64,000 nucleotides of DNA from Acidobacteriota bacterium (GTDB lineage Bacteria > Acidobacteriota > UBA6911), in contig JAAYCX010000012.1 in the NCBI GenBank assembly GCA_012729555.1, positions 86,519 to 150,518 of the forward strand. The letters are read 5' to 3'. Below are positions 1,543 through 59,491 of the stretch, one piece after another; within the stretch, counting starts at the first letter, position 1; each line of letters starts with the position of its first letter. Made by a program: the position numbers and the translations under genes. Under the pieces are notes generated by a model that did not search any database, had not been told where the DNA came from, and saw only the letters and a program-made list of their open reading frames with translations.

Positions 1543-3294
1543 GTGAAGAATAAGCGAATTTTGACAGGCATCACCTTAACGATCGCGGCGGCCCTGGCAT
1601 TCGCCGGGCTGGCCCCGCTCCCCGCCCAGCAGGGCAAGGGCGCGTCGGGGCCGCTGATCACGGTCCTGAATCCGGCCATCGAGAGCAAGATGGTGGACCG
1701 CATCCCGCTCTCCCCGCGCCTGGACACGCTCGAAGGGAAAACGATTTACCTGGTGGATATCAGCTGGGGGGGGCCCGAAGCCGCCTACAGCGTGTTCGAG
1801 GAAATCCAGTCCTGGTTCGCGCAGAACATTCCCAGCGCGAAGATCGTCATCAAGAGAAAAGCGGGCATGTACACCCAGGATGACCCCGCCCTCTGGAAGG
1901 AAATCGCCAAGAACGGAAACGCCGCCCTGGTCGGCATATCGGGTTGAGATGGCTGTACGTCGGCCGTGAGCCAACATGCCAAAACCCTGGAACAGATGAA
2001 CATCCCCACCATCGGCGCCGCGGGCGCCAATGTCGTCAACTACGCGAGGGGGTACGATTTCGAGTATACCAACGGGATGCCGATCCGCTACGTGGGCTTC
2101 CCGTTCCCGGTCGCCGGCCAGCCCCGGTCGGTGGCCCACAGCTACGTGTTCGAGCGCAACGACGTCGTCACCGGGAAACCGATGATGCAGGCGATCGTCG
2201 ACGCCTGGACCAAGCCGTTGACCGAAAAGGAAAAGATCTCCGGGAAACCCCCGGAGGCGCGTCCGGAACCGCGGCTGCTCAAGGCGGACACCGAGGACAA
2301 CCTGCAGCAGCTCTTCAAGGACATGGACTGGACCGACTACAACCCGATCATCCTGCCGACCGAGGAGCGGGTGGCCGCCATGCTCAAGGGGACCAGCCGC
2401 AAGCCGGACGAGGTTGTGAAGGTCATCAACTGGCCCGGCGGAGCCCGGGCGATGACGGTGGAAAAAGTGGCCGTCTGCGCGGTGATGGCCGGGGCCAAAC
2501 CGGCGCACTTCCCCCTGATCCTCGCCGTTTCGACGGCGGTGCCGTTCGGCAACTCGACCAGTTCCATGGCCAACATGATCCTGGTCAACGGCCCGGTCCG
2601 GAACGAGCTCAAGATGAACTACGGCCTGAACGTCATGGGGCCCCACAGCGAGGTTAACAGCGTGGTGGGCCGCGCCTACACCCTGCTGTCGAAGACGGCG
2701 GGGAACCTCCATTCGGGCAAGACGACGTTCAGCGGGCTGGGAAGCAACATCCAGTACAACAACCTCTGCATCGCCGAGAACGAGGAAGCCCTGCCGGCCG
2801 GGTGGCAACCCACCCACGTGCTGAAGGGGTTCAAGCCCGCCGACAGCATCGTCACGGTGGGCACGGGCTGGAGCTACATCTCGAGCGTCGGGGAGGTCCA
2901 GTTGCACTACCCGCCGCAGCACCTGATCCGCGACTACATGCGGTCGCTGACCGGGATGGGGGCCACGGTCATCATGACCCCGGAGGTCGCCGGCATTCTC
3001 AAGGACGCCCAGGGGTTCTCGACCAAGCGCGACCTGAGCAAGTGGCTGGCGGAGAACGTGGAGAAGACCGTGGGTTCCTACTGGGGCAACGGCGTCATCT
3101 CCACGATGTATTCCTCCATGGCCATGCAGGGCCTGGAGCCCTTCGCCTCCCAGCGCAAGCAGGACCCGGAAACGATGATGAAGCCGCTGCAGGCGGGACA
3201 GGTGAACATCGTCGTGGCGGGACAGGGGCAGACCACCTGGTTCGTCACCGACTTCGGCGTCGGCCGCGGCACCAAGGTGGACGACTGGAAATAG
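1543..3294 (+). CDS. Secreted selenoprotein, UxxC motif, in-frame TGA (Sec) at 1945..1947; N-terminal ~130-aa domain fused to ~440-aa domain of unknown function (paralog of 7764..9497)
   Basis: GTG start at 1543 preceded by GGAAGGAAAA; signal peptide KNKRILTGITLTIAAALAFAGLAPLPAQQ; ORFs 1285..1947 and 1966..3294 are in the same frame separated only by TGA; translation across TGA gives GISG-U-DGCTSAVSQHAKTLE, conserved with paralog (GH-U-SQCAPAVVGHAITFE); conservation continues through the stretch between TGA and the ORF-finder start. Confidence 0.6.
1948..1975 (+). other. Candidate bacterial SECIS-like stem-loop immediately 3' of the in-frame UGA
   Basis: GGCU-GUACGUC-GGCC hairpin (1951..1965) starting 3 nt after UGA; needs RNA folding to confirm. 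Confidence 0.3.
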
Positions 3295-3320
3295 CCCGGC
3301 CGCCCGGGCGGGACAAACCA

Positions 3321-3361
3321 GCCGCGGATCCGGAATCCCCCGGGTCCGCGGCTTTTTTTTT
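3321..3361 (+). terminator. Rho-independent terminator after selenoprotein gene
   Basis: 13-bp GC-rich stem GCCGCGGATCCGG / CCGGGTCCGCGGC (one G-U pair), 6-nt loop, followed by T9 tract. Confidence 0.7.
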
Positions 3362-3399
3362 GCTCCCTCCCCGGGCGGAGGCGCGCCCCTCTGCTATGA

Positions 3400-4656
3400 T
3401 TGGGAATCATGGCCGGGATGACGGACGACAACGGAACGGTTCACGGGCCGGCCCCCGGTTCGGGGGAGATTCCAGATGCGAGGGACCGGCTGCTGGCGCG
3501 GGACTTCGTCCTGACGGCACTGGCCAATTTCACCAACTCCTTCGGCATGCAGATGCTGGTGGCCACCATGCCCGTCTACGTCATCAGCCTCGGCGGGAGC
3601 CAGACCGACGCGGGCATGGTGAGCGGGGCCCTCGCGCTGACGGCCCTCCTTTTCCGCCCGCTGATGGGGTGGCTGACCGACGCCTGGCGCCGGCGGCCCC
3701 TGATCCTGGTCGGGACTTCGTGCTACGGGTTCGCCAGCGTCATCTATTTCCTGACCGGGTCGATCCCGCTTCTGCTCGTCGGGCGCTTCGTGCACGGCTT
3801 CGGGTTGAGCTGCTACACCACGGCGAGCAACGCCTACATCGCCGACATCGCCCCGCGCGCCCGCCGGGGGGAGGCCGTGGGGCTGTTTGCGGCCGCGCAG
3901 GCCGTGGGCCTGATCATCGGCCCGGCCGTCGGCTTTCTGCTGATCGACACGATCGGGTTTCACCGCCTCTTCTACTTTTCGGGAGGGCTGGCTTTCGCCG
4001 CCTTCTTCATCTCGCTCTTCACGCGTGAGCGGCGCGCGCCGGGCGACCCTGCGCACGCCCGCTGGTCGCTGCGCACGGGGCTGGTGTCGGTCCGGGCCCT
4101 GCCGGTCGCGTGGATGGCCCTCTGCATGGGGATGGGGTTCGGGGCCGTCAGCGCCTTCATCGCCATCTTCGCCCGCACCCGCGGGTTTCCAAACCCCGGG
4201 TTCTACTTCATGATCCAGGCGCTGGCCCTCATCGTCTGCCGCATCGCCGCCGGCCGCCTGTCCGACCGCTACAACCGGGCGGTCACCATCGTGCCCGGCC
4301 TGGTGCTGGGCGCCGCGGCCCTGGCCCTCCTGCCGCTGGCCCACGGGACGGCCCTGTTCGTACTCTCCGCCTCCCTGTTCGGGTTCGGGTTCGGCTCGGC
4401 CCAGCCGGCCACCATGGCCCTGCTCATCGACCGGGTCGGGCCCGAGGAACGCGGGCTGGCCGTCAGCACCTACTACGCCGGGTTCGATGCGGGGGTCGCG
4501 ATCGGCTCCTTCCTGCTGGGGGTCGTGAGCCAGCGTTTCGGCTTCGGCGTCATGTGGCCCCTGGCGGCCTTCTGCATCCTGCTGGGGCTTGCCGGCTTCC
4601 TCCCCGGCGGGCACACGAAGCAAAAAGATTGCCCGGGGACGCACAATCAATGTTAG
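3400..4656 (+). CDS. MFS transporter
   Basis: 12-TM profile, MFS signature region GALALTALLFRPLMGWLTDAWRRRP, repeated halves. Confidence 0.8.
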   Translation: MGIMAGMTDDNGTVHGPAPGSGEIPDARDRLLARDFVLTALANFTNSFGMQMLVATMPVYVISLGGSQTDAGMVSGALALTALLFRPLMGWLTDAWRRRPLILVGTSCYGFASVIYFLTGSIPLLLVGRFVHGFGLSCYTTASNAYIADIAPRARRGEAVGLFAAAQAVGLIIGPAVGFLLIDTIGFHRLFYFSGGLAFAAFFISLFTRERRAPGDPAHARWSLRTGLVSVRALPVAWMALCMGMGFGAVSAFIAIFARTRGFPNPGFYFMIQALALIVCRIAAGRLSDRYNRAVTIVPGLVLGAAALALLPLAHGTALFVLSASLFGFGFGSAQPATMALLIDRVGPEERGLAVSTYYAGFDAGVAIGSFLLGVVSQRFGFGVMWPLAAFCILLGLAGFLPGGHTKQKDCPGTHNQC

Positions 4657-4694
4657 ACTCGCCGGGTCATCTTTTGCGCAAAAGGAGAAACATC

Positions 4695-5360
4695 ATGAGT
4701 TCGACCAAAGACGAGAAACCGGGCCGCAGGGCGTTCTTCCAGGAAATCACCGCGGGAACCGCGGGGTTTGCGATGGCGACGGCCCTGGCCCAGATGGCCG
4801 CGCCGGCCGCGGCGGCTCAGGACGCCAAGGCGCCCGCCCCCAAGAAGGCCGAATCGGCGTTTTTCAAAAACCCTCCGCCATGGCCCAAGGGGACCGAGGG
4901 GAGCAAGTACGACCACCTGTTCAGCACCAGGCTCCGGGAAAACACGATCGTGCCCGACATCGTTCCCGGCCCCCAGGCCTATTTCCGGGGAGACAGCGAC
5001 CTCCCGGGGGCGAAGATCAACATGGGGTGGCAGATCTTCACAAAGCCCTACCGGCTGGAGATGGAATCGCACCACCACGACACGGACGAATACCTCTTCT
5101 TCCTCGGTTCGACCCTGCCCGACCTGGCGGGTTCTTTCGACGCCGAGATCGAGTACTTCATGGGCAAGGAGTACGAACGGCACATCATCACCAAGGCGAC
5201 GGTGCTCTACATCCCGGCGGGACTGGAACACAATCCCTGCGACATCCGCAGGGTGGGCAAGCCGCTGCTCTTCAGCGCGCTTCAGCTCGCGCCTTACTTC
5301 AACGGCGTCTACCAGACGCAGGGCTACATGGAATTGCGGGGAATGAAGAAGATCGACTGA
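4695..5360 (+). CDS. Tat-signal cupin-domain protein
   Basis: RBS AAAGGAGAAA; twin-arginine motif GRRAFFQEI plus hydrophobic region; cupin metal motif HHHDTDEYLFFLG. Confidence 0.6.
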   Translation: MSSTKDEKPGRRAFFQEITAGTAGFAMATALAQMAAPAAAAQDAKAPAPKKAESAFFKNPPPWPKGTEGSKYDHLFSTRLRENTIVPDIVPGPQAYFRGDSDLPGAKINMGWQIFTKPYRLEMESHHHDTDEYLFFLGSTLPDLAGSFDAEIEYFMGKEYERHIITKATVLYIPAGLEHNPCDIRRVGKPLLFSALQLAPYFNGVYQTQGYMELRGMKKID

Positions 5361-5941: not shown

Positions 5942-6355
5942 TCAGGCGTTGGGGATCTTGAGCACCTGTCCCACCTTGATGAGGTTCGGGTCGGTGAGCT
6001 GGTCCTTGTTGGCGTCGAAAATCTTCATGTAGGCGCCGGCGTTGCCGTAGAACTGCTTCGCGAGCTTCGAGAGCGTGTCCCCCGGCTGGACCGTATAGGT
6101 CTTTGCCGCCGGGGCGGCCGCGGCTGGGGGCGCCATCGAGGGATCGATGACGATGTCGCAGGTCAGGTCGGCGTAGGCCGGGTCCACGAGCTTGATCTGG
6201 TTCCAGATGGCGTTTTTCTGTTCCTCGGTTCCGGCCGAGGCCTTGACGAAGAGTTTGTTGTCCTGCAGGTGGAGGTTGTGCATCCGGAGTTTCTTCTGCT
6301 CGATAAGGCGCAATACCGACTGATACTTCGCTTTGAGTTCCTCGAAACGGTCCAT
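5942..6355 (-). CDS. BON/LysM domain protein (YgaU/Kbp-like)
   Basis: C-terminal LysM YTVQPGDTLSKLAKQFYGNAGAYMKIFDANKDQLTDPNLIKVGQVLKIP; start at MDRFEEL with RBS GGAGGCAGC. Confidence 0.65.
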   Translation of the reverse strand: MDRFEELKAKYQSVLRLIEQKKLRMHNLHLQDNKLFVKASAGTEEQKNAIWNQIKLVDPAYADLTCDIVIDPSMAPPAAAAPAAKTYTVQPGDTLSKLAKQFYGNAGAYMKIFDANKDQLTDPNLIKVGQVLKIPNA

Positions 6356-9670: not shown

Positions 9671-10087
9671 TCACAGGAAGGGATTTTCGATCCGCAGGCC
9701 CGCGATGATCTGTTTGTTGTTCAGATCTTCCGAAAGAATCCTTGCAGCCCCGCTCCTGACGGCGGAAGCCACAATGAGGGCATCCCAGAACCCGATCCTG
9801 GCTTCGTCCTCGATCCGAAACGCCAGGTCGAGTTCAGCCGATGTGATGACGGCGCACCAGAGGGCATAGCTGGCAAGAATGAGACGCGCGGTCGGCTTCG
9901 GCAGGGGTTGCGCGATCTTGCGGGTCACATTCACGTAAAATTCCTGCAATACCTGGGTACTGAGAACTCCGCAGCGATCCGCCCACAGATCAAGAAGGAT
10001 GCCCTTTGCCCTTGCCTGTTTGGCCCCGGAATCCGCATCGTGCGCATAAATCAGCACATTCGTGTCAATAAAGGTCTTATCGCTCAT
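9671..10087 (-). CDS. vapC: Type II toxin VapC (PIN domain ribonuclease)
   Basis: FIDTNVLIYA N-terminal PIN acidic residue, conserved D/E residues, 138 aa, overlaps upstream antitoxin gene by 11 nt. Confidence 0.8.
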   Translation of the reverse strand: MSDKTFIDTNVLIYAHDADSGAKQARAKGILLDLWADRCGVLSTQVLQEFYVNVTRKIAQPLPKPTARLILASYALWCAVITSAELDLAFRIEDEARIGFWDALIVASAVRSGAARILSEDLNNKQIIAGLRIENPFL

Positions 10088-10331
10088 GCAACTCTTCCCG
10101 GCCGGCGGAAATCACTCCGCCCATGTGAAAAGGCTTGTCCAGAAGAGCGATGGCCTGCCGTTCGGCTTGAATGTAAGCCTCGTCCGCCCGAACCAAATCC
10201 TCGAGCTGCTGGGAGAGAAGGCCGCTGATCGACGTTTCCCGCCGGGCCGCAATGACCTTGGCTTTTCGAAGTAAATGCCGGCTCAGGCTGATGGTGATGT
10301 TCTGCTTGTCGCTGTTTCCGGATGGCGTCAT
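10077..10331 (-). CDS. vapB: Type II antitoxin, ribbon-helix-helix (VapB/CopG-like)
   Basis: 84 aa, RHH-like ITISLSRHLLRKAKVIAARRETSISGLLS, immediately upstream of and overlapping PIN toxin. Confidence 0.6.
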   Translation of the reverse strand: MTPSGNSDKQNITISLSRHLLRKAKVIAARRETSISGLLSQQLEDLVRADEAYIQAERQAIALLDKPFHMGGVISAGREELHER

Positions 10332-32673: not shown

Positions 32674-34086
32674 CTACGAGGTCCTCGGGACGTGCGGCGC
32701 CACGCACATGGGACATTCGGGGCTGAACCCCGCGGCGCTGTATCCCGTCATGCCGCCGGCGACGTTGCACACGTTCGCAAAACCCGCCTGCTTGAGCAGG
32801 GAGGCCGAAAGGCTGGAGCGGTGCCCCGTGCTGCAGATCACGGCCACCGGCCGGCTCTTCTTCAGGGAACCGTGCCGGGTACGCAGGTCGGGAGCGGGAA
32901 TATTGACGGCGCCCTCGATATGAACGGCTTCGTACTCGCCGGCGGCCCGCACATCGACCAGCGTGAGTTCCGACCGCCCTTTCATGAGCTGGTTCAATTC
33001 CCGGACCGAAACCTGCGGCACGTGCCCGGTCGGGAGCCCTTGGCGCGACCACTCGAACATGCCGCCGTCGAGATACCCCACGACGCGGTCCAGGCCGACG
33101 CGCCGGAGCAGGACGCCGGCCTCGTAGGCCTCCTCGCCCGATCCGGCCACGAGCAGGATGTCGTGGTCGGGCGGGAGGACCCAGCCGGCGAAGGTGGAGA
33201 AATTCCCGCTGATGTCGATGTTGTACGCGCCGGGGACATGCTGCCCGCCGAAGGCGTCGTAGCTCCGGATGTCGAGCACGATCGTGTTCTTCTTTCCCGC
33301 GGCCTTGCTGAACCGCGCGGGGTCCATCAGGAGAATGCCGGGGAGGGTGTGGACCCTGGCGGGCCCCTTGCCGTTGATGGCGCTGCAGCGGCTGAAATGG
33401 TCCGGGGCTGCCGGCATGTCGGTGGTCAGCGAGCGGATGAACTGCTCGCGGTCCGGGATCTGCAGCGCCGGGTTGCAGCGCCGCTCGTACCCGATCGTCG
33501 TCCAGCGTTTCGCCCCCATGGCGCGCCCGCAAAGGCTGCCGGCGCCGTGGGCGGGATAGACGTCGCAGAAATCGGGAAGCGCCATGAGCTTGCCGTGGAG
33601 GCTGTCGTAGAGCTTATGGGCCAGATCGCGCGCCTTGCCGGGGAAGAGGTCGGGCCGGCCGACGTCGCCGACGAACAGGGTGTCCCCGCAGAAAACGGCC
33701 GCCGGCTCCTTTCCGCGGCTGCGGTCGGTGACGACATAGCTGATATGCTCCGGGGTATGGCCCGGGGTCTCCAGCACCCGGATGCTCATGTTTTCGATCC
33801 GGAAACTGTCCCCTTCCGCGACCGCGCGGTGCCTGAAGCGGCATTTGGCCGATTTGGGGGCGTAGATCACCGCCCCGGTGGCGTCCGCCAGGTCCAGGTG
33901 CCCGGAAATGAAATCGGCATGCAGATGGGTTTCCAGGATATGGGTGATCTTCATCCCCATCTCCTCCGCGGCGTGCAGGTACACTTCGATGTCGCGCTGC
34001 GGGTCCACGATGGCACAGGTGTCCGTCCCGCCGAGGAGGTAGGAACTGTGCGCAAGGCCTTTCACGAAAAACTGTTCTACATACAT
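32674..34086 (-). CDS. Persulfide dioxygenase (MBL fold) fused to tandem rhodanese domains (CstB-like)
   Basis: MBL metal motif THLHADFISGH, two rhodanese domains with C-terminal catalytic CSTGHRS. Confidence 0.8.
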   Translation of the reverse strand: MYVEQFFVKGLAHSSYLLGGTDTCAIVDPQRDIEVYLHAAEEMGMKITHILETHLHADFISGHLDLADATGAVIYAPKSAKCRFRHRAVAEGDSFRIENMSIRVLETPGHTPEHISYVVTDRSRGKEPAAVFCGDTLFVGDVGRPDLFPGKARDLAHKLYDSLHGKLMALPDFCDVYPAHGAGSLCGRAMGAKRWTTIGYERRCNPALQIPDREQFIRSLTTDMPAAPDHFSRCSAINGKGPARVHTLPGILLMDPARFSKAAGKKNTIVLDIRSYDAFGGQHVPGAYNIDISGNFSTFAGWVLPPDHDILLVAGSGEEAYEAGVLLRRVGLDRVVGYLDGGMFEWSRQGLPTGHVPQVSVRELNQLMKGRSELTLVDVRAAGEYEAVHIEGAVNIPAPDLRTRHGSLKKSRPVAVICSTGHRSSLSASLLKQAGFANVCNVAGGMTGYSAAGFSPECPMCVAPHVPRTS

Positions 34087-37389: not shown

Positions 37390-39423
37390 TCACTTTCGGG
37401 CATCGTCCAGGCTTTCCGCGGTCAGCGACGCGATATCGATGACACGCATGCTCTCGTCGACATTGAGCAGCTTCAGCGAATCCCCGAGCATGTGCATGCA
37501 GTAGGCGCAGCCGGTCACGATCGTATCCGCACCCGCTTCATGCGCCTGCCGGACGCGCAGGTTGTTGATCCGCTCCCCCCGCTTCAGGTCCATGAAATAA
37601 TGCCCTCCCCCCGCGCCGCAGCAGAGGCTCTTTTCGCGCCTGTTTTTCATTTCGGCGAGCTCCGCGCCCGGGATCGCCCGGAGCACCGAGCGGGGGGCGT
37701 CGTAGATCCCCTGGTAGCGGCCGAGGTAACAGGGGTCATGGTACACCATCCGCCCCCTCCCGCTCCCCGGCCGGATCCTGCCGGACGCCATCAGCCTCTC
37801 GATGTACTCGGTGTGGTGAACGACATTGTACGAGGCCCCGAACTGGGGGTATTCGTTCTTGAAAACGTTATAGCAATGGGGACACCCGGTCAGGAGCGTG
37901 TGGAACCCGCGCTGTCCGAGCAGCTCGATCTGTTCCCGGGCCGCCTGCTGAAACACCATCTCCTGCCCCAGGATACGGGCGGGGTCGCCGCAGCACCTCT
38001 CGTCCGCGCCGAGAACGCCGTAATCCACGCCGCAGCGCTCTAGCAGGCGGCAAAGGTCCTCGGCGATCCTGTGCTTCTGGGGATCGAACGTCACGCAGCA
38101 GCCGATCCAGTACAGGACATCGACCGACTCCCCCGGCTTGACCACGCGCAGCCCGGCCCGTTCGATCCAGTCGGTCCGTTCCGACTGCGGGCCGAAGGGG
38201 TTGCCTCCGGTCTCGAACAGGCGCAGGGCGCGGCCCGCTTCCTCAGGAATGCGCCCCTGGATCAGCACCTCGTTGCGCCGCAGCTCCATCAGGGTATCCA
38301 CGTGCTCGATCATGGCGGGGCAGACCTCCACGCAGGCGGCGCAGGTCCGGCAGTGCCAGATGAACTCCTCGTCGAACGCCCTGCCCACGATATCGGCCTT
38401 CTCCCCCTCCTCCGCGCCCGCCGCCTCGTCGAGCTGGGCCTTCATGCGCGCGATCAGCTGCCGCGGGGAAAAATAGTCCCGGTCCGCCATGTAGGCGGGG
38501 CAGACCTCGTCGCAGCGTCCGCACAGGATGCAGGCGTCCAGGTCCAGGCGCTGCTTCCAGCTGAACTCCTCCGGTTTCTGGATCCCGATCCGGATCTCCT
38601 CGCTTTCGGCGCTCTCCATCAGCTTCTCGATGTCCTGGCGCCGGAGCTCCCCCCGCGGCCCGAGCTTGGAGAGGAAGGCGTTGGTCGGCAGCGCCAGCAT
38701 GTGAAAGAACTTGGTGTAGGGAATGAGGGCGATCCAGCCCATGACCAGGACGGTGTGGAGCCACCATAGCGCCGCATGCGCCCCCCGGGCGGTTTCCCCG
38801 GCCATCCCCGCAAAAATCGGGCTGAGGCCCCACCCCACGAACGAGAGCTCCTTCCAGGGATCCCCGTTGGCCCCGATCCTCGCCCCCTCGACCAGGTAGC
38901 CGGTCACGACCAGGGCGGCGACCAGGAGGAGCACCAACCCGTCTTCACGGGCGACGGGGAGCGTCCCCGGCCTGGCGACATACCGGCGCCAGGCGGCCAT
39001 GCCCAGGCCGGCCAGGATCAAGAGCCCGGCCAGCTCGCTCGCCACGGAAAAGAAGACGTAGACCCCCCCCTTGAAGATCTCGAGATCCAGGCCGAACAGG
39101 AGGTTCCCATCATACTGGACCATGACGATCAGGGTGGTGATGAAAAGAACGAGGAAGGAGTAGAAGAGCAGGCCGTGCAGGAGTCCCGGGTAGAAATTCC
39201 GGCGCACCCGGTTCTGGAGCAGCGTCTCGCCCAGGAGGATCTTCAGGCGCTTTCCCCAGTCGGAAAATCTCTCGCCGTCCTCCTTCCCCCGGCGCCAGGA
39301 CCGCACGCGCCGGCACATTCCCCAGGCAAAGACGGCGACGGCAGCGGCAAACAGCACATACATCACCCAGGCCTGGGAGACATTCCACATCAGGGGGCGG
39401 GTAGCTTCGGAAAGGGGGGGCAT
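37390..39423 (-). CDS. Membrane-bound Fe-S oxidoreductase: NarI/HdrE-like cytochrome b fused to HdrD-like 2x[4Fe-4S] plus CCG domains
   Basis: N-terminal ~6 TM with conserved His; ferredoxin motifs CILCGRCDEVCP and CRTCAACVEVCP; CCG motifs (CCVTFD, CCGDP, CPHC, CCGAGGG, CAYC). Confidence 0.75.
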   Translation of the reverse strand: MPPLSEATRPLMWNVSQAWVMYVLFAAAVAVFAWGMCRRVRSWRRGKEDGERFSDWGKRLKILLGETLLQNRVRRNFYPGLLHGLLFYSFLVLFITTLIVMVQYDGNLLFGLDLEIFKGGVYVFFSVASELAGLLILAGLGMAAWRRYVARPGTLPVAREDGLVLLLVAALVVTGYLVEGARIGANGDPWKELSFVGWGLSPIFAGMAGETARGAHAALWWLHTVLVMGWIALIPYTKFFHMLALPTNAFLSKLGPRGELRRQDIEKLMESAESEEIRIGIQKPEEFSWKQRLDLDACILCGRCDEVCPAYMADRDYFSPRQLIARMKAQLDEAAGAEEGEKADIVGRAFDEEFIWHCRTCAACVEVCPAMIEHVDTLMELRRNEVLIQGRIPEEAGRALRLFETGGNPFGPQSERTDWIERAGLRVVKPGESVDVLYWIGCCVTFDPQKHRIAEDLCRLLERCGVDYGVLGADERCCGDPARILGQEMVFQQAAREQIELLGQRGFHTLLTGCPHCYNVFKNEYPQFGASYNVVHHTEYIERLMASGRIRPGSGRGRMVYHDPCYLGRYQGIYDAPRSVLRAIPGAELAEMKNRREKSLCCGAGGGHYFMDLKRGERINNLRVRQAHEAGADTIVTGCAYCMHMLGDSLKLLNVDESMRVIDIASLTAESLDDARK

Positions 39424-39695: not shown

Positions 39696-40271
39696 ATGAA
39701 GGTCGTCGCGGTCAACGGCAGCGGGAAGAAGGACGGGAATACCTTCCTCCTGCTGAACATCGTCATGCAGGAGCTTCGGGCCGAGGGGATCGAAACGGAC
39801 CTGATCCAGCTCGCCGAGGGCGCCCCCATTCAGGGGTGCACCGCCTGCATGAAATGCCTGGAGAGGAAGAACCTGAAGTGCGCGGTCGACTCCGACCCGT
39901 TCAACGAGTACTTCGAGAAGATCGGCAGGGCGGACGGGCTGCTGCTCGGCTCGCCCGTCTATTTCGCCGACATCACCGCCGGGATGAAAGCCCTCATCGA
40001 GCGCTGCGGCTTCGTGGCGCGGGCCAACGGCAACGTCCTGAGGCGCAAGGTGGGGGCGGGGGTCCTGGCCGTCCGCCGTGCGGGGTCGAACCACTCCCTG
40101 GCCAGCCTGAACCATCTCTTTCTCATCAACGAGATGATCATTCCCGGCTCGAACTACTGGAACGCGGGGGTCGGACGGATGCCGGGCGAAGTCCTGGCCG
40201 ACGCCGAGGGGGTGGCCACGATGAAGACGCTGGGGGTCAACATGGCCTGGCTCCTCAAGCGCCTGGCCTGA
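39696..40271 (+). CDS. Iron-sulfur flavoprotein / NAD(P)H-dependent FMN reductase (Isf-like)
   Basis: Flavodoxin-like fold MKVVAVNGSGKKDGNT; compact Cys motif CTACMKC...C typical of Isf. Confidence 0.7.
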   Translation: MKVVAVNGSGKKDGNTFLLLNIVMQELRAEGIETDLIQLAEGAPIQGCTACMKCLERKNLKCAVDSDPFNEYFEKIGRADGLLLGSPVYFADITAGMKALIERCGFVARANGNVLRRKVGAGVLAVRRAGSNHSLASLNHLFLINEMIIPGSNYWNAGVGRMPGEVLADAEGVATMKTLGVNMAWLLKRLA

Positions 40272-52602: not shown

Positions 52603-52684
52603 ATTCCCTGATTGCAACGGTTCCCCCCCATCGTCAAATGAGATACAATGCATACCTCGACCGCGTTGGCGGGTGGGGAGAGCG

Positions 52685-55600
52685 ATGAAGAAGCGCTGGA
52701 TCGGACGCATAACCAAGGCGCTGGCGGCACTGGCCGTCCTCGTTGCCCTCATTCCGCTTCTGCTGCTGGCGCCGCCGGTCGGAAACTGGGCGTTCCACAA
52801 GGCGGGCGGATATCTCCGGCGCAGCGCGAAGATCGAACTGCGGGCGGACCGGGTCCGGTTGAACCTGTTCACCGGATCGGTCCGGCTGGAAAACCTGTCG
52901 CTCGCGGCCGCGCGCGCCCCGGGGCTCCCCCCCCTGCTGCGGGCCGATCACGCCTACGCCGACCTCGGCCTGCTCGATGCCGTCAGGGGGGTGTGGACGG
53001 TGGAAACCGTGCGGGTCCACGAGCCCAGGGTGCATTATTTCGTGGGCCCGGACGGGGAAACGAACCTGCCCGAGACGGACGCCTCCGGGGACGCCTCCCT
53101 GGATCTGCGGATTCTCCAGGCCGGCATCACCGACGGCGCCCTGCAATGGGAAGACCGCCGGCGCGGACTGTGGATCGAACTGCCCGGCTGGGATCTTGCC
53201 GTCGAGGGAAACCGGGGGTCGCGCGCGCACCGTATCACCTTCACCGGCGGCCCGGTTTCGACCTTCACCCTGGGGGACCTTTCGATCCCCGTCGATTCCC
53301 TCGGCTTCTCAGGCGTTCTGGACGGCCCCCTATGGCGCATAGACTCGGCCCGGGTCGTTGCCGCCCGGTCCACGCTCGAGTTCGGGGGATCGGTACGGAA
53401 CCTCCGGGAACTGGACCTGGAACTGGCGCCCGGGCTGGATACCGGAGCGATCGCCGAAGCCGCGGGTCACGGGGGCAGGATCGCCGGCCGGGTCTCCGGA
53501 ACAATCAGGGTTCACGGCCCGCTCGACAACCTGCGGATAGAGGGCCGGCTCGCGGGAGATGGGGTGCAGCTGGAGGGGGCGCCTCCGCTCGACCTCCGGC
53601 TTGCCGCGGACCTGGAGTGGGACGCGGCCGGGGACAGGGTGTCGATCCAAAGCCTGGACCTCGCTTCCCCGGAAGGATCGCTCCGCGCCGAGGGGACGCT
53701 CTGCACCGGGGAGGAGTGCGCGGCCAGTGTCCTGAGGGCGCGGCTCCGTGACATCGATCTCCTCCCCTTCTCGCACAGCCTCGGGCTCCCCTTCCGCCTG
53801 GCCGGCCGGGCGGGGGGGACGGTCTCCGTCGAGTGGAGGGGGAAGCCCGTACCTGCAAACCTCCGCGCCGACGCCTCCCTCGAACTCGGGAGCACCCGCC
53901 CGGCGCCGGAAGCCGATCTTCTCCCTGTCTCCGCGACGGTCGACGCGGAGTACGCATCCGGCCGGCTGCGGGGACGGATACGCTCGCTCTCGGTCCTGGG
54001 TGCGCGCGCGGCCGGCGAGTTTTCCCTCCGGTCTTTTCGCACCCTCGAGGGGCGCCTCCAGGGGGAGGCCGCCGACCTGGACGATTCCGCGCAGCAGCTC
54101 GCGCGCTTTCTGGGAAAGCCGGGATCCCGCGCGGGGGTCAGCCTGGCCGGCAACCTGGACTTTGACGTCCGGGCCTCGGGGGAACTGGACGACCTGGAGA
54201 TCGAGGCCAGGCTGGACGCCCCGTCGCTCGCGGTCGCGGGCCTCGGGGGGATGGGGACCGAGGCGCGCGCCGTCTACCGAAACGGGGTCCTCTCGTTTCA
54301 GAACAACCTGCGTCTTCCCGGCGAGAGCCTGCTGGAGACCCAGGGCACGCTCGATTTCGGAGGGGAGGAGCCCCGCTTGCGCCTCGCGGCCAAATCCGCG
54401 GCCCCGGTGCCGCTCGAGGTCCTCAACTCCCTGCTCGGGCGCTCGATTCCGATGTCGGGCACCCTGGAGACCTCGCTGCGCCTGGACGGCCCCGTCGACA
54501 ACCTCGCCGGGGATCTCTCCATCACCGGAGAAGCCCTCTCCCTGTACGCACTGCCCCTGGGACGGCTGGACATCCTCCTCGGCCTGGCCGACCGGGAGAT
54601 CCGGTCCAGCCGCATACGGTTGTCGCGGAGTCCCGAGCATCCATCGAGCGATCTGCTGGCGGCCCGCGTTTCCTACGCCCTGGACAGCGGCCGCTACGAA
54701 CTCGAGGCGGAGGGGACGGGGCTGGCCCTCGTCCCCGCGCACCTTCCCGGCGGAGCCCAAATCAACGGGACCCTCTCGCTCGAGGCTTCGGGAACGGGGA
54801 CGATCGAAAATCCTTCCTTCGACCTCGAAATCGGATCGAACGACCTGCACGCATGGCGCCAACCCCTGGGCCCGGTTTCGGTCACGGCCCGGATCCGGGG
54901 GAAGGAAGCCGGCATCCGGGCGCTGGCACCCGATCTGGATCTTTCCTCCGACGCCACCCTGACACTGAGGGCCCCCTGGCCCTTCCGGGTCACCGTCGAG
55001 GCGCGGGACTCCGACCTGGCCGCCGCCGGACTCGAGTGGCGCGGCCGGCCGGTGACCGGGTCGCTCAGGGCGGACATCTCGGGTTCCGGAGAGTTGGGCG
55101 ACCTGGAGGCGTCCCGGATCGAGGCGCTGATCGAAGAGGTGACGGCGCGGGCGGGCGAACTCGAGGTGCGCACCGGGGCGCCGGCCGGAATCCACTATCG
55201 GGGCCGCTCCCTGGAGTTCGCACCGCCCCTCGCCCTGGCCGTCGGCCGTTCGGCGATCGAGCTCGGCGGCCGCCTCCCCGTCCGGGCGGGGGCGCCGGCC
55301 GGAACCGTCGACCTGAAAGGGCGGCTCGACCTGGCGGACACCGGAACAGTCTTCACCCCCCCAGAAGGGTTCGGGCTCGAAGGAGTCCTCGATCTCGACC
55401 TGGTGCTCTCCGGCGCCTACGGGGATTTTGCCGTCACGGGCGGATTCGGCCTGGACGACGGAACGATACGCATTCCCAGGGCCGCCGCACCCATGACGGA
55501 AGCCTCCGTCCGGGGAAAGATCGAGAGCGGGGTGCTGGTCCTCGAGCGGGCGGGCGCGAAATGGGGGAGAGGCCGCATCGGGCTCTCGGGCACCGTCCCC

Positions 55601-58600
55601 CTCGGGTTGCTGCCCGAAGACCTTCCCCTGGAATTTGCGCGCGGGACAGGGCCGGCCGAGTTCGTCCTCGACGTTGAAGATTTCGCCCCGGAAGCGACGG
55701 GGTTCCTTCCCGAGGGAATTTCGGGCCTGGTTTCGCTCCGCGCCACGGGGCGCGCCGACCATCCGGACCTCCAGGCCCTGGACGGCGAAATCCGGTTCGG
55801 CGCCCTGGACCTCAAGGTCGACACCATCGGCTTCAGCCAGGCGGAACCGGTCCTGATCGAAATCCGCCGCGGCGTCGCCACCATCGCCCGACTGGCGCTC
55901 TCCGGGCCGGAAACCCGTATCGAGGCGTCCGGAACGGCGGGAGTGTACCCGCGGGGGCCGCTGGACCTCGCCGTCGAAGGCTCCCTCGACGCCGGGCTGC
56001 TCGGCGTTTTCAGCGAGGGGGTGAAAACGGCGGGCGAACTGCGGATCGACGCGCGGGTCGCGGGCTCGCTCGACGCCCCGGTGCTTTCGGGCCGGGCGGA
56101 AATGGACAACGGGAAGCTGGCCCTCCAATCCCCCCGGATCGCGGCCGACGACCTGAAGATGCGGCTGGACCTCACCTCCGATTCCATCATCGTGCGCGAA
56201 CTCACCGGCGTCCTCAACGGCGGCGCCATGTCGGTCGAGGGTTCGATCGGGTACCGTGACGGAATCCTCAACGGCATAGATCTCGAGGCGCGCGTGCAGG
56301 ACGTCTTCCTCGAATTCCCCGAGGGGCTGAAATCGGCGTCGAGCGGGAACCTGACCATGAAATCGGGGGAAGACACCATCGTCGTCGGCGGCAGCCTGCG
56401 GATCATGGAAAGCGCCTACCGGGAATCGATCGAAGTCGGGGGGCAGCTGATCAACTACCTGAAATCGCAGCAGGTGGTGACCCTCGACGAGGAACCCAAT
56501 CCCTTCCTGGACCGGCTCCGGTTCGACATCGCCGTCCGCACCTCGACCCCGCTGCTGGTGCAGAACAACATCGCCAGGGTCGAAGCCTCCGCCACCAATC
56601 TCCGCCTTGTCGGAAGTTATGCCGACCCCTCGGTCGTCGGCCGCGTCACCCTCGGCGAGGGGGGGGAGATCGTCCTGAACCAGCAAAGCTACTACATCAA
56701 CCGGGGGGTGATCACCCTGGTGAACCAGAGCCGCATCGAACCGGAATTCAACATCCAGGCGCAGACGAAGATCGACATCTACGAGATCACGCTCCAGCTG
56801 ATCGGGAACCCCGAACGGATGTCCACCCTGCTCTCTTCCGACCCGCCGCTTTCGGAGAGGGACATCCTCTCGCTCCTCCTCACGGGCAAGACCATCGCCG
56901 AGACCCAGGGGCGCGAAATGCAGATGGCCCGGACCCAGGCGCTGTCGCTGATCGCCGGACAGGCGGGTGCGGGAGTCACCAACGAGGCGCGCAAGGCGCT
57001 CCACCTGAGCACCTTCCGGATCGACCCGGGGCTGATCGCCTCGGAATCCAACCCGGGGGCCCGCCTGACGATCGGGGAGGACGTCACGCGCGACCTCAGC
57101 CTCGTCTATTCCATGAACCTCGTCAACGGGGGGGACCAGATCTGGGCGGCCGAGTACGATATCGGCCGGCGCCTCTCGACCCAGGCCACCAAGCAGCAGG
57201 ACAACAGCTACCGCTTCGAGTTCCGCCATGACCTCCGCTTCGGGGGCGCGGGGGCGCGCCGCGGGGCGCGGCGGCAGGCGGCCCGGTTCGAGATCGGATC
57301 GGTCCATTTCCAGGGGGAGGAGGCGCACTCCGAAAAGGACCTTATGGACCGGTTCAAGAACAAGGCGGGCGACCGGTACGAGTTTCAGAAAGTCCAGAAA
57401 GGGCTGGACCGCCTGCACGACTTCTACTTCAGCCAGGACCGCCTGGAAGCCGATATCCGGCTCCAGCGCGAAACCGGGGACAGGACCGTCGACCTGAAGG
57501 TCGGCATCGACCCCGGGCCGGTGGTGCAGTTCGACTACGGCTCCTTCCCCCTAGGCAAGGATGTACGCGAGCAGGTCGCCAGGGCGTGGGCGGACGGGGT
57601 TTTCGAGGCCGAAAGACTGGACGAGGCGGCGCTCGTCATCCGCCGCTCCCTGACCGAAAGCGGCTTCCTCCAGGCCACGGTCGCTGCTGAAATGGCGGAG
57701 GCGGACGGGCGGAAGCAGGTCCGGTTCACCATCGACTCCGGCCCCCGGTACGCCGAGATTCCCCTCTCCTTCCCGGGGGCAAAGGGGATTTCCCCCGGCG
57801 CCCTCGGCGAACTCGTGGAGGACGCCGACCTGGAGCGCGAGATCTACGTCAACCCGAAAAAGGTGGCCGATTTTCTCCGGCGCTACTACCGCAACCGCGG
57901 GTACCTCCAGGCGGAGGTCTCCCCGCCGCAGTTCCGGCCGGCCGCACGGGAAACGGTGATCGCGGTTACCGAGGGGCCGCTGTTCGTGATCGGCGAGCTC
58001 GAGTTCTCCGGCAACAAGGTCTTCAGCTACGACGAACTCTGGATGGTCATCCCCACCTCGAGCGGCAGCGTCTACAACCCGGACTCGCTGAGGGAATCGG
58101 TCCGGGAGATGGAGAACCTCTACCACGGCCGGGGGTACAACGACGTCACCATCACCTTCCGGGTAGTCCAGGACACCTCCAGGACCCGGGCCGACGTGAA
58201 CTTCCAGATCACCGAACGGCGGCAGTCGGTCATCCGCGATATCGTGATCGAGGGGAACCGGGACACCCGGCCGGGATTCGTCACCCGGCAGATCGACTTC
58301 CGGGTCGGCGACCCCCTGGATTACGAAAAGATCAACGAAGCCCGGAGGCGGCTGTACTCCACGGGGGTGTACACGACCGTCGATTTCCAGATGGAGGAAC
58401 TCCCCTCCGAGGCGCCGGCCCCGGAGCGAAAGGAGATGCGGGTGCGGGTCCGGCTGCGCGAGACCCAACCCTACCGCCTGCAGTACGGGCTCTTCTACGA
58501 TACCGACCGCGGCGTCGGCGGCCTGGTGGAGGCGCAGCACCTGAACCTCCTGGGGCGGGCGACCAACCTCGGCCTCCGCCTCCGCTACGACTCCGACCTC

Positions 58601-59491
58601 AAGGAGGGGCGGCTGTACTATCACCAGCCCTTCGTGACCCGGCTCCACCTCAAGATGGACGCCAGCGCGTTCTGGCAGCAGGAGACCCGCTCCTTCTTCT
58701 CGGCGAAGCGGATCGGGTTCTCCCTGATGCAGGAGCGGGAGCTTCCTCGGGAGTTCCGCCTCGATTACGGCTACCGCTACGACCATGTCCGCTGGAACGG
58801 ACTGCCGCCCGACCCGATCCTCTTCCAGGCCAGCGACCCCGTCGCCCGGCTGACCGGGACCCTGACCCGCGACACGCGCGACAGCGTGCTCGACCCCACG
58901 CGCGGCGAGTTCACCTCCCAGACGTTCGAATTCGGCCCCCGCTGGCTCGGGTCCGAGGTCGGTTTCGCCCGTTACTCGGGGCAGTATTTCCGCTACTTCC
59001 CCCTGGACAAGTACCTGGGGAAACCGATCGTGGACCGAAAGGGGGAACCGCTGCCGACGAACTTCGTCTACGCCGCGGCGCTGCGCCTGGGGCTGACGTC
59101 CCCCTTCGGGAAAAAATCGCTGATCGCGCCCGAGCGCTTCTTCGCCGGGGGCGGCACCACCATGAGGGGGTTCGAGCAGGACCTGATGGGGCCGGTGGAG
59201 GAGCAGCCGGACGGCAGCCTGCGGCCGAGCGGGGGGGAAGCCATGTTCCTGCTCAACAACGAACTCCGCTTCCCGATCGTGGGCATCCTCCAGGGGGTGG
59301 CGTTCCTCGACATCGGCAACGTCTACAGGAAACTGACCGACTTCGATTTCACCCTGCGCAAGACGGCCGGGGCGGGGCTCCGGCTGAAGATCCGGTCGAT
59401 CCCCCTGAGGTTCGACTACGGGTTCAAGCTCGACCGGAAAACGGGCGAGAGCGGGGGCGAATTCTTCTTCAGCATCGGGCAGGCGTTCTAG
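52685..59491 (+). CDS. Single-chain TamB-like / TamA(Omp85)-like fusion protein (translocation and assembly module)
   Basis: N-terminal signal-anchor then ~1500 aa TamB/AsmA-like beta-rich repeats ending in DUF490-like region; then POTRA repeats and Omp85 barrel motifs (FFAGGGTTMRGF, FLLNNELRFP) ending in C-terminal Phe; one uninterrupted 2268-codon ORF. Confidence 0.7.
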   Translation: MKKRWIGRITKALAALAVLVALIPLLLLAPPVGNWAFHKAGGYLRRSAKIELRADRVRLNLFTGSVRLENLSLAAARAPGLPPLLRADHAYADLGLLDAVRGVWTVETVRVHEPRVHYFVGPDGETNLPETDASGDASLDLRILQAGITDGALQWEDRRRGLWIELPGWDLAVEGNRGSRAHRITFTGGPVSTFTLGDLSIPVDSLGFSGVLDGPLWRIDSARVVAARSTLEFGGSVRNLRELDLELAPGLDTGAIAEAAGHGGRIAGRVSGTIRVHGPLDNLRIEGRLAGDGVQLEGAPPLDLRLAADLEWDAAGDRVSIQSLDLASPEGSLRAEGTLCTGEECAASVLRARLRDIDLLPFSHSLGLPFRLAGRAGGTVSVEWRGKPVPANLRADASLELGSTRPAPEADLLPVSATVDAEYASGRLRGRIRSLSVLGARAAGEFSLRSFRTLEGRLQGEAADLDDSAQQLARFLGKPGSRAGVSLAGNLDFDVRASGELDDLEIEARLDAPSLAVAGLGGMGTEARAVYRNGVLSFQNNLRLPGESLLETQGTLDFGGEEPRLRLAAKSAAPVPLEVLNSLLGRSIPMSGTLETSLRLDGPVDNLAGDLSITGEALSLYALPLGRLDILLGLADREIRSSRIRLSRSPEHPSSDLLAARVSYALDSGRYELEAEGTGLALVPAHLPGGAQINGTLSLEASGTGTIENPSFDLEIGSNDLHAWRQPLGPVSVTARIRGKEAGIRALAPDLDLSSDATLTLRAPWPFRVTVEARDSDLAAAGLEWRGRPVTGSLRADISGSGELGDLEASRIEALIEEVTARAGELEVRTGAPAGIHYRGRSLEFAPPLALAVGRSAIELGGRLPVRAGAPAGTVDLKGRLDLADTGTVFTPPEGFGLEGVLDLDLVLSGAYGDFAVTGGFGLDDGTIRIPRAAAPMTEASVRGKIESGVLVLERAGAKWGRGRIGLSGTVPLGLLPEDLPLEFARGTGPAEFVLDVEDFAPEATGFLPEGISGLVSLRATGRADHPDLQALDGEIRFGALDLKVDTIGFSQAEPVLIEIRRGVATIARLALSGPETRIEASGTAGVYPRGPLDLAVEGSLDAGLLGVFSEGVKTAGELRIDARVAGSLDAPVLSGRAEMDNGKLALQSPRIAADDLKMRLDLTSDSIIVRELTGVLNGGAMSVEGSIGYRDGILNGIDLEARVQDVFLEFPEGLKSASSGNLTMKSGEDTIVVGGSLRIMESAYRESIEVGGQLINYLKSQQVVTLDEEPNPFLDRLRFDIAVRTSTPLLVQNNIARVEASATNLRLVGSYADPSVVGRVTLGEGGEIVLNQQSYYINRGVITLVNQSRIEPEFNIQAQTKIDIYEITLQLIGNPERMSTLLSSDPPLSERDILSLLLTGKTIAETQGREMQMARTQALSLIAGQAGAGVTNEARKALHLSTFRIDPGLIASESNPGARLTIGEDVTRDLSLVYSMNLVNGGDQIWAAEYDIGRRLSTQATKQQDNSYRFEFRHDLRFGGAGARRGARRQAARFEIGSVHFQGEEAHSEKDLMDRFKNKAGDRYEFQKVQKGLDRLHDFYFSQDRLEADIRLQRETGDRTVDLKVGIDPGPVVQFDYGSFPLGKDVREQVARAWADGVFEAERLDEAALVIRRSLTESGFLQATVAAEMAEADGRKQVRFTIDSGPRYAEIPLSFPGAKGISPGALGELVEDADLEREIYVNPKKVADFLRRYYRNRGYLQAEVSPPQFRPAARETVIAVTEGPLFVIGELEFSGNKVFSYDELWMVIPTSSGSVYNPDSLRESVREMENLYHGRGYNDVTITFRVVQDTSRTRADVNFQITERRQSVIRDIVIEGNRDTRPGFVTRQIDFRVGDPLDYEKINEARRRLYSTGVYTTVDFQMEELPSEAPAPERKEMRVRVRLRETQPYRLQYGLFYDTDRGVGGLVEAQHLNLLGRATNLGLRLRYDSDLKEGRLYYHQPFVTRLHLKMDASAFWQQETRSFFSAKRIGFSLMQERELPREFRLDYGYRYDHVRWNGLPPDPILFQASDPVARLTGTLTRDTRDSVLDPTRGEFTSQTFEFGPRWLGSEVGFARYSGQYFRYFPLDKYLGKPIVDRKGEPLPTNFVYAAALRLGLTSPFGKKSLIAPERFFAGGGTTMRGFEQDLMGPVEEQPDGSLRPSGGEAMFLLNNELRFPIVGILQGVAFLDIGNVYRKLTDFDFTLRKTAGAGLRLKIRSIPLRFDYGFKLDRKTGESGGEFFFSIGQAF

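Follow-up and report, generated by a model that had tools for sequence, protein, structure and literature searches.

Two probable UGSC-family fusion selenoproteins in an Acidobacteriota genome and the conserved hairpins downstream of their UGA codons

We analyzed a stretch of 64,000 nucleotides from an Acidobacteriota bacterium (assembly GCA_012729555.1, contig JAAYCX010000012.1, positions 86,519 to 150,518 of the forward strand), referred to as the window in the following. It contains two related genes, here called gene A and gene B, each of which carries an in-frame UGA codon. These codons almost certainly encode selenocysteine (Sec) in two related secreted proteins. More specifically, we consider it very probable that both products are exported UGSC-family selenoproteins carrying a UxxC motif, and that each UGA is decoded by means of a selenocysteine insertion sequence (SECIS), a hairpin located downstream of the codon. 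An original prediction, made from the DNA letters alone, had described both UGAs as Sec codons followed by SECIS hairpins. The sequences and coordinates that it gave for the two UGA regions are accurate, both codons are in frame, and its basic idea is borne out by the conservation of TGA, by the existence of cysteine homologs and by covariation. The genes and codons are as follows.

Gene A: 1543-3294, plus strand, 583 codons, GTG start and TAG stop (translation, with start and stop codons checked)
Gene B: 9497-7764, minus strand, 577 codons, ATG start and TAG stop (translation)
Probable Sec codon of gene A: UGA at 1945-1947, plus strand, residue 135, motif G-U-D-G-C
Probable Sec codon of gene B: UGA at 9110-9108, minus strand, residue 130, motif H-U-S-Q-C

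Both motifs are of the UxxC type, and in both genes the open reading frame (ORF) continues on either side of the UGA. The ribosome-binding site upstream of the GTG start of gene A is AGGGAAGGA, and that of gene B is GGAGGAG. The two genes are paralogs with approximately 35% identity, and their products have a common domain order: a hydrophobic N-terminal signal peptide, a UGSC domain and a C-terminal part of about 380 amino acids. The Pfam family PF24696 matches residues 41-196 of the gene A product with 48.1 bits and residues 38-196 of the gene B product with 73.4 bits (cut-off 25), and thus the UGA at residue 135 or 130 lies inside the UGSC domain.

The conservation of the codon was examined in two samples: a genome sample of 79 loci from GTDB species representatives (Acidobacteriota, Desulfobacterota and relatives), and a metagenome sample of 80 loci retrieved with gene A. 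Of the 102 positions aligned in the genome loci, 99 have TGA; a TTA accounts for one of the other three, and artefacts of alignment or frameshift account for two. TGA also holds in the A-type genes of these loci. In the metagenome loci, TGA is found at the homologous position in 81 of 81 cases. The combined sample therefore contains 99 + 81 homologous genes with TGA and a single true exception, the TTA. This codon (Leu) takes the place of TGA in the protein P0115 (locus L001, 794-796; compared with L042, 833). Among the close relatives, P0115 alone has a public gene call of full length, and it keeps the downstream hairpin CUGC GGUC GCAG. The TTA reflects either a mistake in sequencing or a Sec codon that was inactivated very recently.

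Database searches return the family in two halves. With gene B as query, 3440 relatives were found; of the best 120, 119 measure 372-441 amino acids and align only to the sequence that follows the TGA. With the N-terminal domain as query, there were 1107 relatives, and each of the best 120 spans 61-63% of the query, precisely the stretch that precedes the TGA. Since these best 120 matches stop or restart at the TGA, every listed family member has been split there by public gene callers; for example, P0001 (locus tag GXY47_03355) is 100% identical to the C-terminal part of gene B. No start codon is conserved 3' of the UGA, and the downstream gene calls start at differing places.

More distant full-length proteins of 540-620 amino acids were collected by an exhaustive HMMER search with the full-length relative P0115. 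In seven of these (P0244, P0246, P0252, P0256, P0302, P0328 and P0338), the column of the Sec residue is occupied by Cys within a CxxC motif; in the same alignment, other members have lost the motif. The flanks are conserved on both sides of the UGA among homologs. Judged from sequence comparison, the genes thus present what the standard bioinformatic criteria for selenoproteins ask for, namely a conserved UGA, conserved flanks and Sec/Cys pairs. In the 64 kb of the window, just three TGAs are flanked on either side, in one frame, by sequence of coding-type composition, including the UGAs of genes A and B. The third, at 40269, was rejected as an artefact: it is the ordinary stop of an FMN (flavin mononucleotide) reductase gene that adjoins an antisense gene. 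TGA is also the ordinary stop codon of the window genes hflX, FemAB-like, PIN and FG-GAP, and because it terminates these neighboring genes, the genetic code is standard.

We now turn to the hairpins, for which the U of the UGA is numbered as position 1. Downstream of the gene B codon, the sequence folds as follows.

9102-9076, minus strand: predicted SECIS of gene B, with two stems (5 bp below and 6 bp above a bulged C) and a GGUU tetraloop
9102-9098 paired with 9080-9076, minus strand: lower stem (positions 9-13 with 31-35)
C9097, minus strand: bulge (position C14)
9096-9091 paired with 9086-9081, minus strand: upper stem (positions 15-20 with 25-30)
9090-9087, minus strand: loop GGUU (positions 21-24)

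The original prediction had drawn this hairpin as GUGCGCCGGCGGUUGUCGGCCAC (9100-9078), which does fold and is placed correctly, but its 8-nt loop overlooked two closing pairs. The calculated energy is -17.7 kcal/mol for the whole hairpin and -10.1 kcal/mol for the upper stem alone. The published model of bacterial SECIS elements (bSECIS) specifies a loop of 3-9 nt that is separated from the UGA by 16-37 nt and has a G, usually as G-G or G-U, among its first two nucleotides, together with an upper stem of 4-16 bp and a free energy not above -7.5 kcal/mol (PMC13188914, PMC10778597). The stem length (6 bp) and both energies of the gene B hairpin lie within these ranges. To obtain a window-wide background, every position on both strands was scanned for hairpin geometry. 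With a strict definition, i.e., at least six consecutive pairs, a 4-5-nt loop starting at position 21 and G22-U23, the geometry occurs at 3.8e-4 of window positions and at one of the 1331 TGA trinucleotides, that of gene B. The gene B hairpin stands out within the window by itself, whereas the gene A hairpin does not.

For gene A, two hairpins have to be distinguished.

1959-1975, plus strand: predicted SECIS upper stem-loop of gene A, 1959-1964 paired with 1970-1975, loop CGUGA at 1965-1969
1949-1967, plus strand: decoy hairpin of gene A, the minimum free energy (MFE) fold, positions 5-11 paired with 17-23, -9.6 kcal/mol

These two folds are mutually exclusive. The stem of the hairpin at 1959-1975, which is the conserved one, pairs positions 15-20 with 26-31 and contains a mismatch, C17.A29 (C1961.A1973), so that in the window it consists of 3 bp, the C.A mismatch and 2 bp, compared with the 4-16 bp of the bSECIS model; a weak extension to 1957/1977 is possible. 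In its loop, G1966 and U1967 are invariant. With a relaxed geometry (five of six pairs plus G22-U23), 3.3e-3 of positions and 4 of the 1331 TGAs, including those of genes A and B, are matched, against about 4.4 TGAs expected at the per-position rate. In the window itself the gene A hairpin is therefore at chance level, and its support comes from orthologs.

The comparison set comprises 154 distinct homolog sequences, each consisting of the UGA and 45 nt, which fall into four registers of one common design.

4-nt loop at positions 21-24: 43 sequences, including gene B
5-nt loop at positions 21-25: 76 sequences, including gene A
Extra codon (C-A-P-G-A-V), 5-nt loop at positions 24-28: 31 sequences
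Extra codon (C-A-P-G-A-V), 4-nt loop at positions 24-27: 4 sequences

A single MAFFT alignment of 93 sequences stayed ungapped and mixed the registers, and it was replaced by separate UGA-anchored alignments for each register. Because these alignments are gap-free and anchored at the UGA, the choice of alignment cannot favor a structure. In all 154 sequences, the loop measures 4-5 nt (CGUGA, AGUU, GGUC, GGUUC and the like), a G is among its first two nucleotides, and its distance from the UGA is 17 or 20 nt: 17 nt in the conserved hairpins of genes A and B, and 20 nt in the extra-codon class. The original prediction had taken a spacing of 3-8 nt from the UGA as the relevant one, which does not agree with the 16-37 nt to the loop of the published model (PMC13188914) or with the 17 nt of the conserved hairpins. 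It was right about dual coding: the hairpin nucleotides also encode the conserved xxC-xx-AV peptide. The Val codon GUN supplies the G-U of the loop; this G-U always corresponds to the first two bases of the Val codon, and when the codon is shifted by 3 nt, the hairpin shifts along with it.

Covariation was then evaluated for each class by comparison with 500 shuffles. Pairing extends to 80% of cells in the 44 sequences of the gene B class, and double-sided changes occur in six pairs, comprising 34 cells. None of the 500 shuffles reaches the covariation score; pairs 15-30, 16-29, 17-28 and 18-27 covary, and pairing falls to 25-61% when the 3' partners are slid by 1-3 columns. In the extra-codon class, again none of the 500 shuffles reaches the score, and pair 18-34, for example, is found as GU (10), AU (8), CG (7) and UA (3), with one non-pair. 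For the gene A class, with its 47 distinct sequences of 36 nt, we obtained a covariation score of 0.188 as compared with 0.069 for shuffles, and it is reached by none of the 500. The pair counts of this class are as follows.

Pair 15-31: GC 23, CG 6, UA 5, AU 3, other 10
Pair 16-30: UA 39, GC 6, UG 1, other 1
Pair 17-29: CG 27, GU 1, other 19 (C.A in 15, including gene A itself)
Pair 18-28: GC 46, CG 1
Pair 19-27: GC 42, GU 2, AU 1, other 2
Pair 20-26: CG 47

The pair that is mismatched in gene A, 17-29, is thus closed as CG in 27 of the 47 A-type sequences. In every class, pairing is kept by compensatory changes, some of which fall at synonymous third-codon positions.

These synonymous changes are informative as to whether the constraint acts on the RNA or on the peptide. 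In the gene B class, the third bases of Pro codon 6 and Val codon 9 pair with each other, as in CCG/GUC and CCA/GUU; the counts are 33 G-C, 8 A-U, 1 U-A, 1 G-U and one non-pair (Fisher p = 8e-8, without phylogenetic correction). All four nucleotides occur as third base of the Pro codon in the extra-codon class, and the first base of codon 12 matches each of them, with pairing in 28 of 29 sequences. Five Cys homologs were compared at the DNA level, three of which (L081, L084 and L085) have no in-register hairpin; in L081, whose peptide is C-S-T-C-A-P-A-V, 0 pairs form there. L082 has a partial hairpin, and L083 (gene 3001-4710, protein P0252, codon TGC, motif G-C-S-T-C-C-P-A-V-V-G-H) retains, in the exact register, an AGUU loop on a stem of 8 bp without a mismatch. 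The L083 gene looks like a recent change from TGA to TGC, i.e., from Sec to Cys, in which the useless hairpin has yet to decay. Since synonymous sites covary and the hairpin is lost in most Cys homologs, we conclude that selection acts on the RNA itself.

The complementary test used the window sequences alone and was weak: the peptide was re-encoded with synonymous codons weighted by the codon usage of the window. For gene A, five or more pairs are kept in 3% of trials (p = 0.03). For gene B (p = 0.22), the outcome belongs to a group of results that weigh against our interpretation: the recodings always keep at least four of the six upper pairs, and all six are kept in 22%. The amino acids thus determine much of the gene B stem, as would be expected if peptide and RNA element had evolved under mutual influence. 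The same group includes the energetics. The conserved gene A hairpin has only -4.5 to -6.1 kcal/mol, which misses the -7.5 threshold of the bSECIS model, its stem carries the C.A mismatch, and it competes with the more stable alternative fold; with the conserved hairpin scored by itself, 63 of the 154 sequences fall short of the energy threshold. Compared with dinucleotide shuffles, the MFE region of gene A has z = -0.8, which is chance level, and the gene B region has z = -1.9, which is not exceptional in a sequence of 67% GC. The covariation statistics given above are, for all classes, without phylogenetic correction. Rfam yields no match in the whole window at the gathering score, and no SECIS family around either UGA even at E <= 10. 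Finally, ARAGORN finds no tRNA or tRNA-Sec in the 64-kb window, and a Pfam scan finds no selA, selB or selD among 40 of its ORFs.

Three other explanations have to be weighed, of which the one specific to gene A concerns the choice of hairpin. It takes as the SECIS the more stable structure right after the UGA, either the 4-bp stem with a 7-nt loop at 1951-1965 drawn in the original prediction or the MFE fold at 1949-1967 that contains it, instead of 1959-1975. The smaller hairpin (positions 7-10/18-21) does form, with -4.6 kcal/mol, and the MFE fold has an energetic advantage (-9.6 vs -4.5 kcal/mol) and pairs in 92% of cells in the 47 A-type sequences. Yet in the same 47 sequences there is not one double-sided change, the covariation score equals that of shuffles (500/500), and in 15 of the 47 pair 7-21 is lost, uncompensated, through a G7 to A substitution that replaces Gly by Ser. 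As the arms are the conserved Gly-Cys and Ala-Val codons, the peptide accounts for the pairing. In addition, the distance from the UGA to the loop is 7 nt for the hairpin of the original prediction and 8 nt for the MFE hairpin, both below the 16-37 nt of the published model (PMC13188914), the loop sequence is not conserved, there is no counterpart in gene B or in the other classes, and the 5' arm would lie inside the ribosome during decoding of the UGA. We therefore regard this choice as improbable; the conserved element of gene A is 1959-1975. The check for covariation among orthologs that the original prediction had proposed is thus passed by its gene B hairpin but not by its gene A hairpin, the covarying structure being 1959-1975. 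Its other proposed test, refutation by the lack of a stable hairpin near the UGA, would have wrongly passed the decoy, and covariation was what decided the matter. This case illustrates that the thermodynamically best hairpin beside a UGA can be a decoy.

A more general objection is that all of these hairpins are by-products of the conserved peptide (C-A-P-A-V-V-G and similar) without an RNA function, in which case any recoding would need something else. The tenacity of the gene B pairs in the recoding test and the perfect hairpin retained by the Cys homolog L083 speak for it. Against it, third-position bases covary synonymously so as to keep pairs, the arms change amino acids in a compensatory manner between classes, L081 encodes CAPAV without a stem and L084 and L085 are stemless too, and peptides that differ share the loop G-U at a constant distance from the UGA. 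We give this objection even less weight than the alternative hairpin of gene A. The last possibility, that the TGAs are real stops of split genes or pseudogenes, sequencing errors or codons of a reassigned code, accords with public annotation, which gives two separate ORFs at every listed locus, and with the lack of Sec machinery within the window. It would have to accommodate a TGA retained at some 180 independent loci, each with one frame running through it, a single Pfam domain that spans the codon, CxxC homologs, the lack of a conserved start after the UGA, and the use of TGA to end other window genes, by which the code is standard; we consider it hardly credible.

The interpretation that we prefer, Sec insertion directed by the conserved hairpins, would work as follows. 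When the ribosome stands at the UGA at 1945 (gene A) or 9110 (gene B), a short hairpin of the mRNA would sit just outside it. Its stem begins 11 nt past the UGA, and its small loop would display the invariant G22-U23. The hairpin would recruit SelB.GTP.Sec-tRNA(Sec), and the UGA would be read as selenocysteine and not as a stop. The element would be encoded in the codons of C-x-x-A-V-x-x, in which Val GUN gives the G-U of the loop and the flanking codons give both arms. In this scheme, it is a matter of direct observation that the UGA and the hairpin position are conserved, that base changes are compensatory and that most Cys homologs have lost the hairpin; the binding of SelB, the insertion of Sec and the occlusion by the ribosome of anything nearer to the UGA are borrowed from established knowledge of bacterial Sec decoding. 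If the scheme is right, the family offers a natural example of one SECIS design that is kept in register by a Val codon while its arms drift in a compensatory and partly synonymous manner.

The best-characterized element for comparison is that of E. coli fdhF, in which SelB binds a 17-nt upper stem-loop at nt 15-31, 11 nt past the UGA, with a bulged U17 and the essential loop nucleotides G23/U24, and in which the lower part is dispensable and variable (PMC8659212). The window elements likewise lie inside the ORF and have an upper stem-loop at nt 15-30 (gene B) or 15-31 (gene A) that starts 11 nt after the UGA, with an invariant G-U in a small apical loop. They differ in that the G-U is at 22-23 instead of 23-24, in that the bulged U17 is replaced by a bulged C14 under the 6-bp stem in gene B and by the C17.A29 mismatch in gene A, and in that the remaining sequence is unrelated, so that they are outside the fdhF sequence family. 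By analogy, the elements of genes A and B may work like the fdhF element. The original prediction had also noted a likeness to the fdhF loop; a G-U is indeed present in the small apical loop of gene B, but the E. coli loop is characterized by G23/U24 and not by 'GGUUG' (PMC8659212). With respect to the bSECIS consensus, loop size, loop G and spacing agree in genes A and B and in all 154 distinct sequences, whereas the gene A hairpin deviates in its 3 + 2 pairs around a mismatch and in its -4.5 kcal/mol as against -7.5. Overall, the SECIS here is of the ordinary bacterial type and belongs to a known selenoprotein family, of which the fusion subfamily is uncurated.

UGSC-containing proteins are a long-known selenoprotein family with an unassigned function and a predicted redox role (PMC1976440, PMC2398784). 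They are among the most abundant selenoproteins of aquatic metagenomes and have rare Cys homologs, and a 'UGSC/Unknown_1' fusion has already been reported from ocean metagenomes (PMC2398784). Genes A and B resemble the family in having a UGSC domain above the Pfam threshold, a UxxC motif with Sec in the first position, and Cys homologs. They differ from it in the motif, which is U-D-G-C or U-S-Q-C instead of U-G-S-C, and in the addition of a signal peptide and of the domain of about 380 amino acids. The NCBIfam equivalog NF041046, which describes the stand-alone UGSC protein of about 147 amino acids, is not reached (33.4 and 38.6 bits against a cut-off of 125); the two products are related fusion proteins and not this stand-alone equivalog. 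At one genome locus (L046, 491), a stand-alone-type UGSC gene with the canonical U-G-S-C lies approximately 2 kb upstream of a fusion-type gene, and the sequence downstream of its motif does not have the same hairpin register.

The C-terminal part of about 380 amino acids has no match in Pfam, and a sequence profile search of the PDB was also empty. A full-length structure model (mean predicted local distance difference test, pLDDT, 83) matches only flavodoxin/CheY-like folds, over about 110-160 residues. The length of this match would fit the N-terminal domain, which leaves the rest of the model without any match. As for localization, some homologs have twin-arginine motifs at the N-terminus (SRREFV, SRRSFF and SRRRFL; P0115, P0338 and P0339), others have plain hydrophobic signal peptides like those of window genes A and B, and many have no signal. 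Going by these N-termini, the fusion family seems to exist in exported and cytoplasmic forms.

Several Acidobacteriota carry more than one copy of the family. In L062 and L067-L070 (Candidatus Acidiferrales and relatives), there are up to three tandem paralogs, each with its own UGA and SECIS variant; the UGAs are located at about 2459, 4100-4200 and 6000-6150, and the motifs are U-S-Y-C, U-P-G-C and U-H-G-C. L066 shows two such genes, the first being off the locus. The complete chromosome OY761556.1 (L014, L055 and L056) has no fewer than four copies of the family, and several metagenome-assembled genomes likewise hold at least four. Copy numbers of this kind indicate that the fusion family is strongly expanded in some Acidobacteriota. 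We tentatively suggest, with somewhat less than even confidence, that genes A and B belong to a large and essentially unannotated family of exported two-domain selenoenzymes, in which a flavodoxin-like UGSC domain with UxxC is joined to a domain of about 380 amino acids, with several paralogs per genome in Acidobacteriota and Desulfobacterota and with a SECIS variant particular to each lineage. If this is true, there would be an unrecognized selenium-dependent extracytoplasmic redox chemistry in these soil and sediment phyla, and their selenoproteomes would be systematically undercounted, since every listed gene call of the family is split at the UGA. In practical terms, genes A and B can be annotated as single selenoproteins of 583 and 577 residues instead of four fragments, and the same correction applies to hundreds of listed split gene calls, mostly from Acidobacteriota and Desulfobacterota.

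Some observations on the surroundings may be added. Beyond gene A, the following feature was noted.

3321-3361, plus strand: strong intrinsic-terminator-like hairpin GCCGCGGAUCCGG...CCGGGUCCGCGGC followed by U9, starting 27 nt past the gene A stop

Its position suggests that gene A may end its transcript. Directly upstream of gene B, at 9671-10331 on the minus strand, there is a PIN-domain toxin gene together with a small antitoxin-like gene (weak DUF6364/CcdA matches), the two overlapping by 11 nt. The Cys-form homologs of L081 (2189-2683) and L084 (901-1884) adjoin a gene for a Pyr_redox_2 flavoprotein of the thioredoxin-reductase-like type, a conceivable redox partner; no Pyr_redox_2 gene neighbors the copies in the window. 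Farther away, two minus-strand genes of the window, neither of which has an in-frame TGA, encode a fused membrane/Fe-S/CCG-domain protein resembling HdrD or DsrK (37390-39423) and a metallo-beta-lactamase-rhodanese fusion adjoining a sulfate permease (32674-34086); from their predicted products, these two genes appear to provide a context of sulfur and redox metabolism. The plus strand also contains, at 52673-59491, an ORF of 2272 amino acids with coding-type composition.

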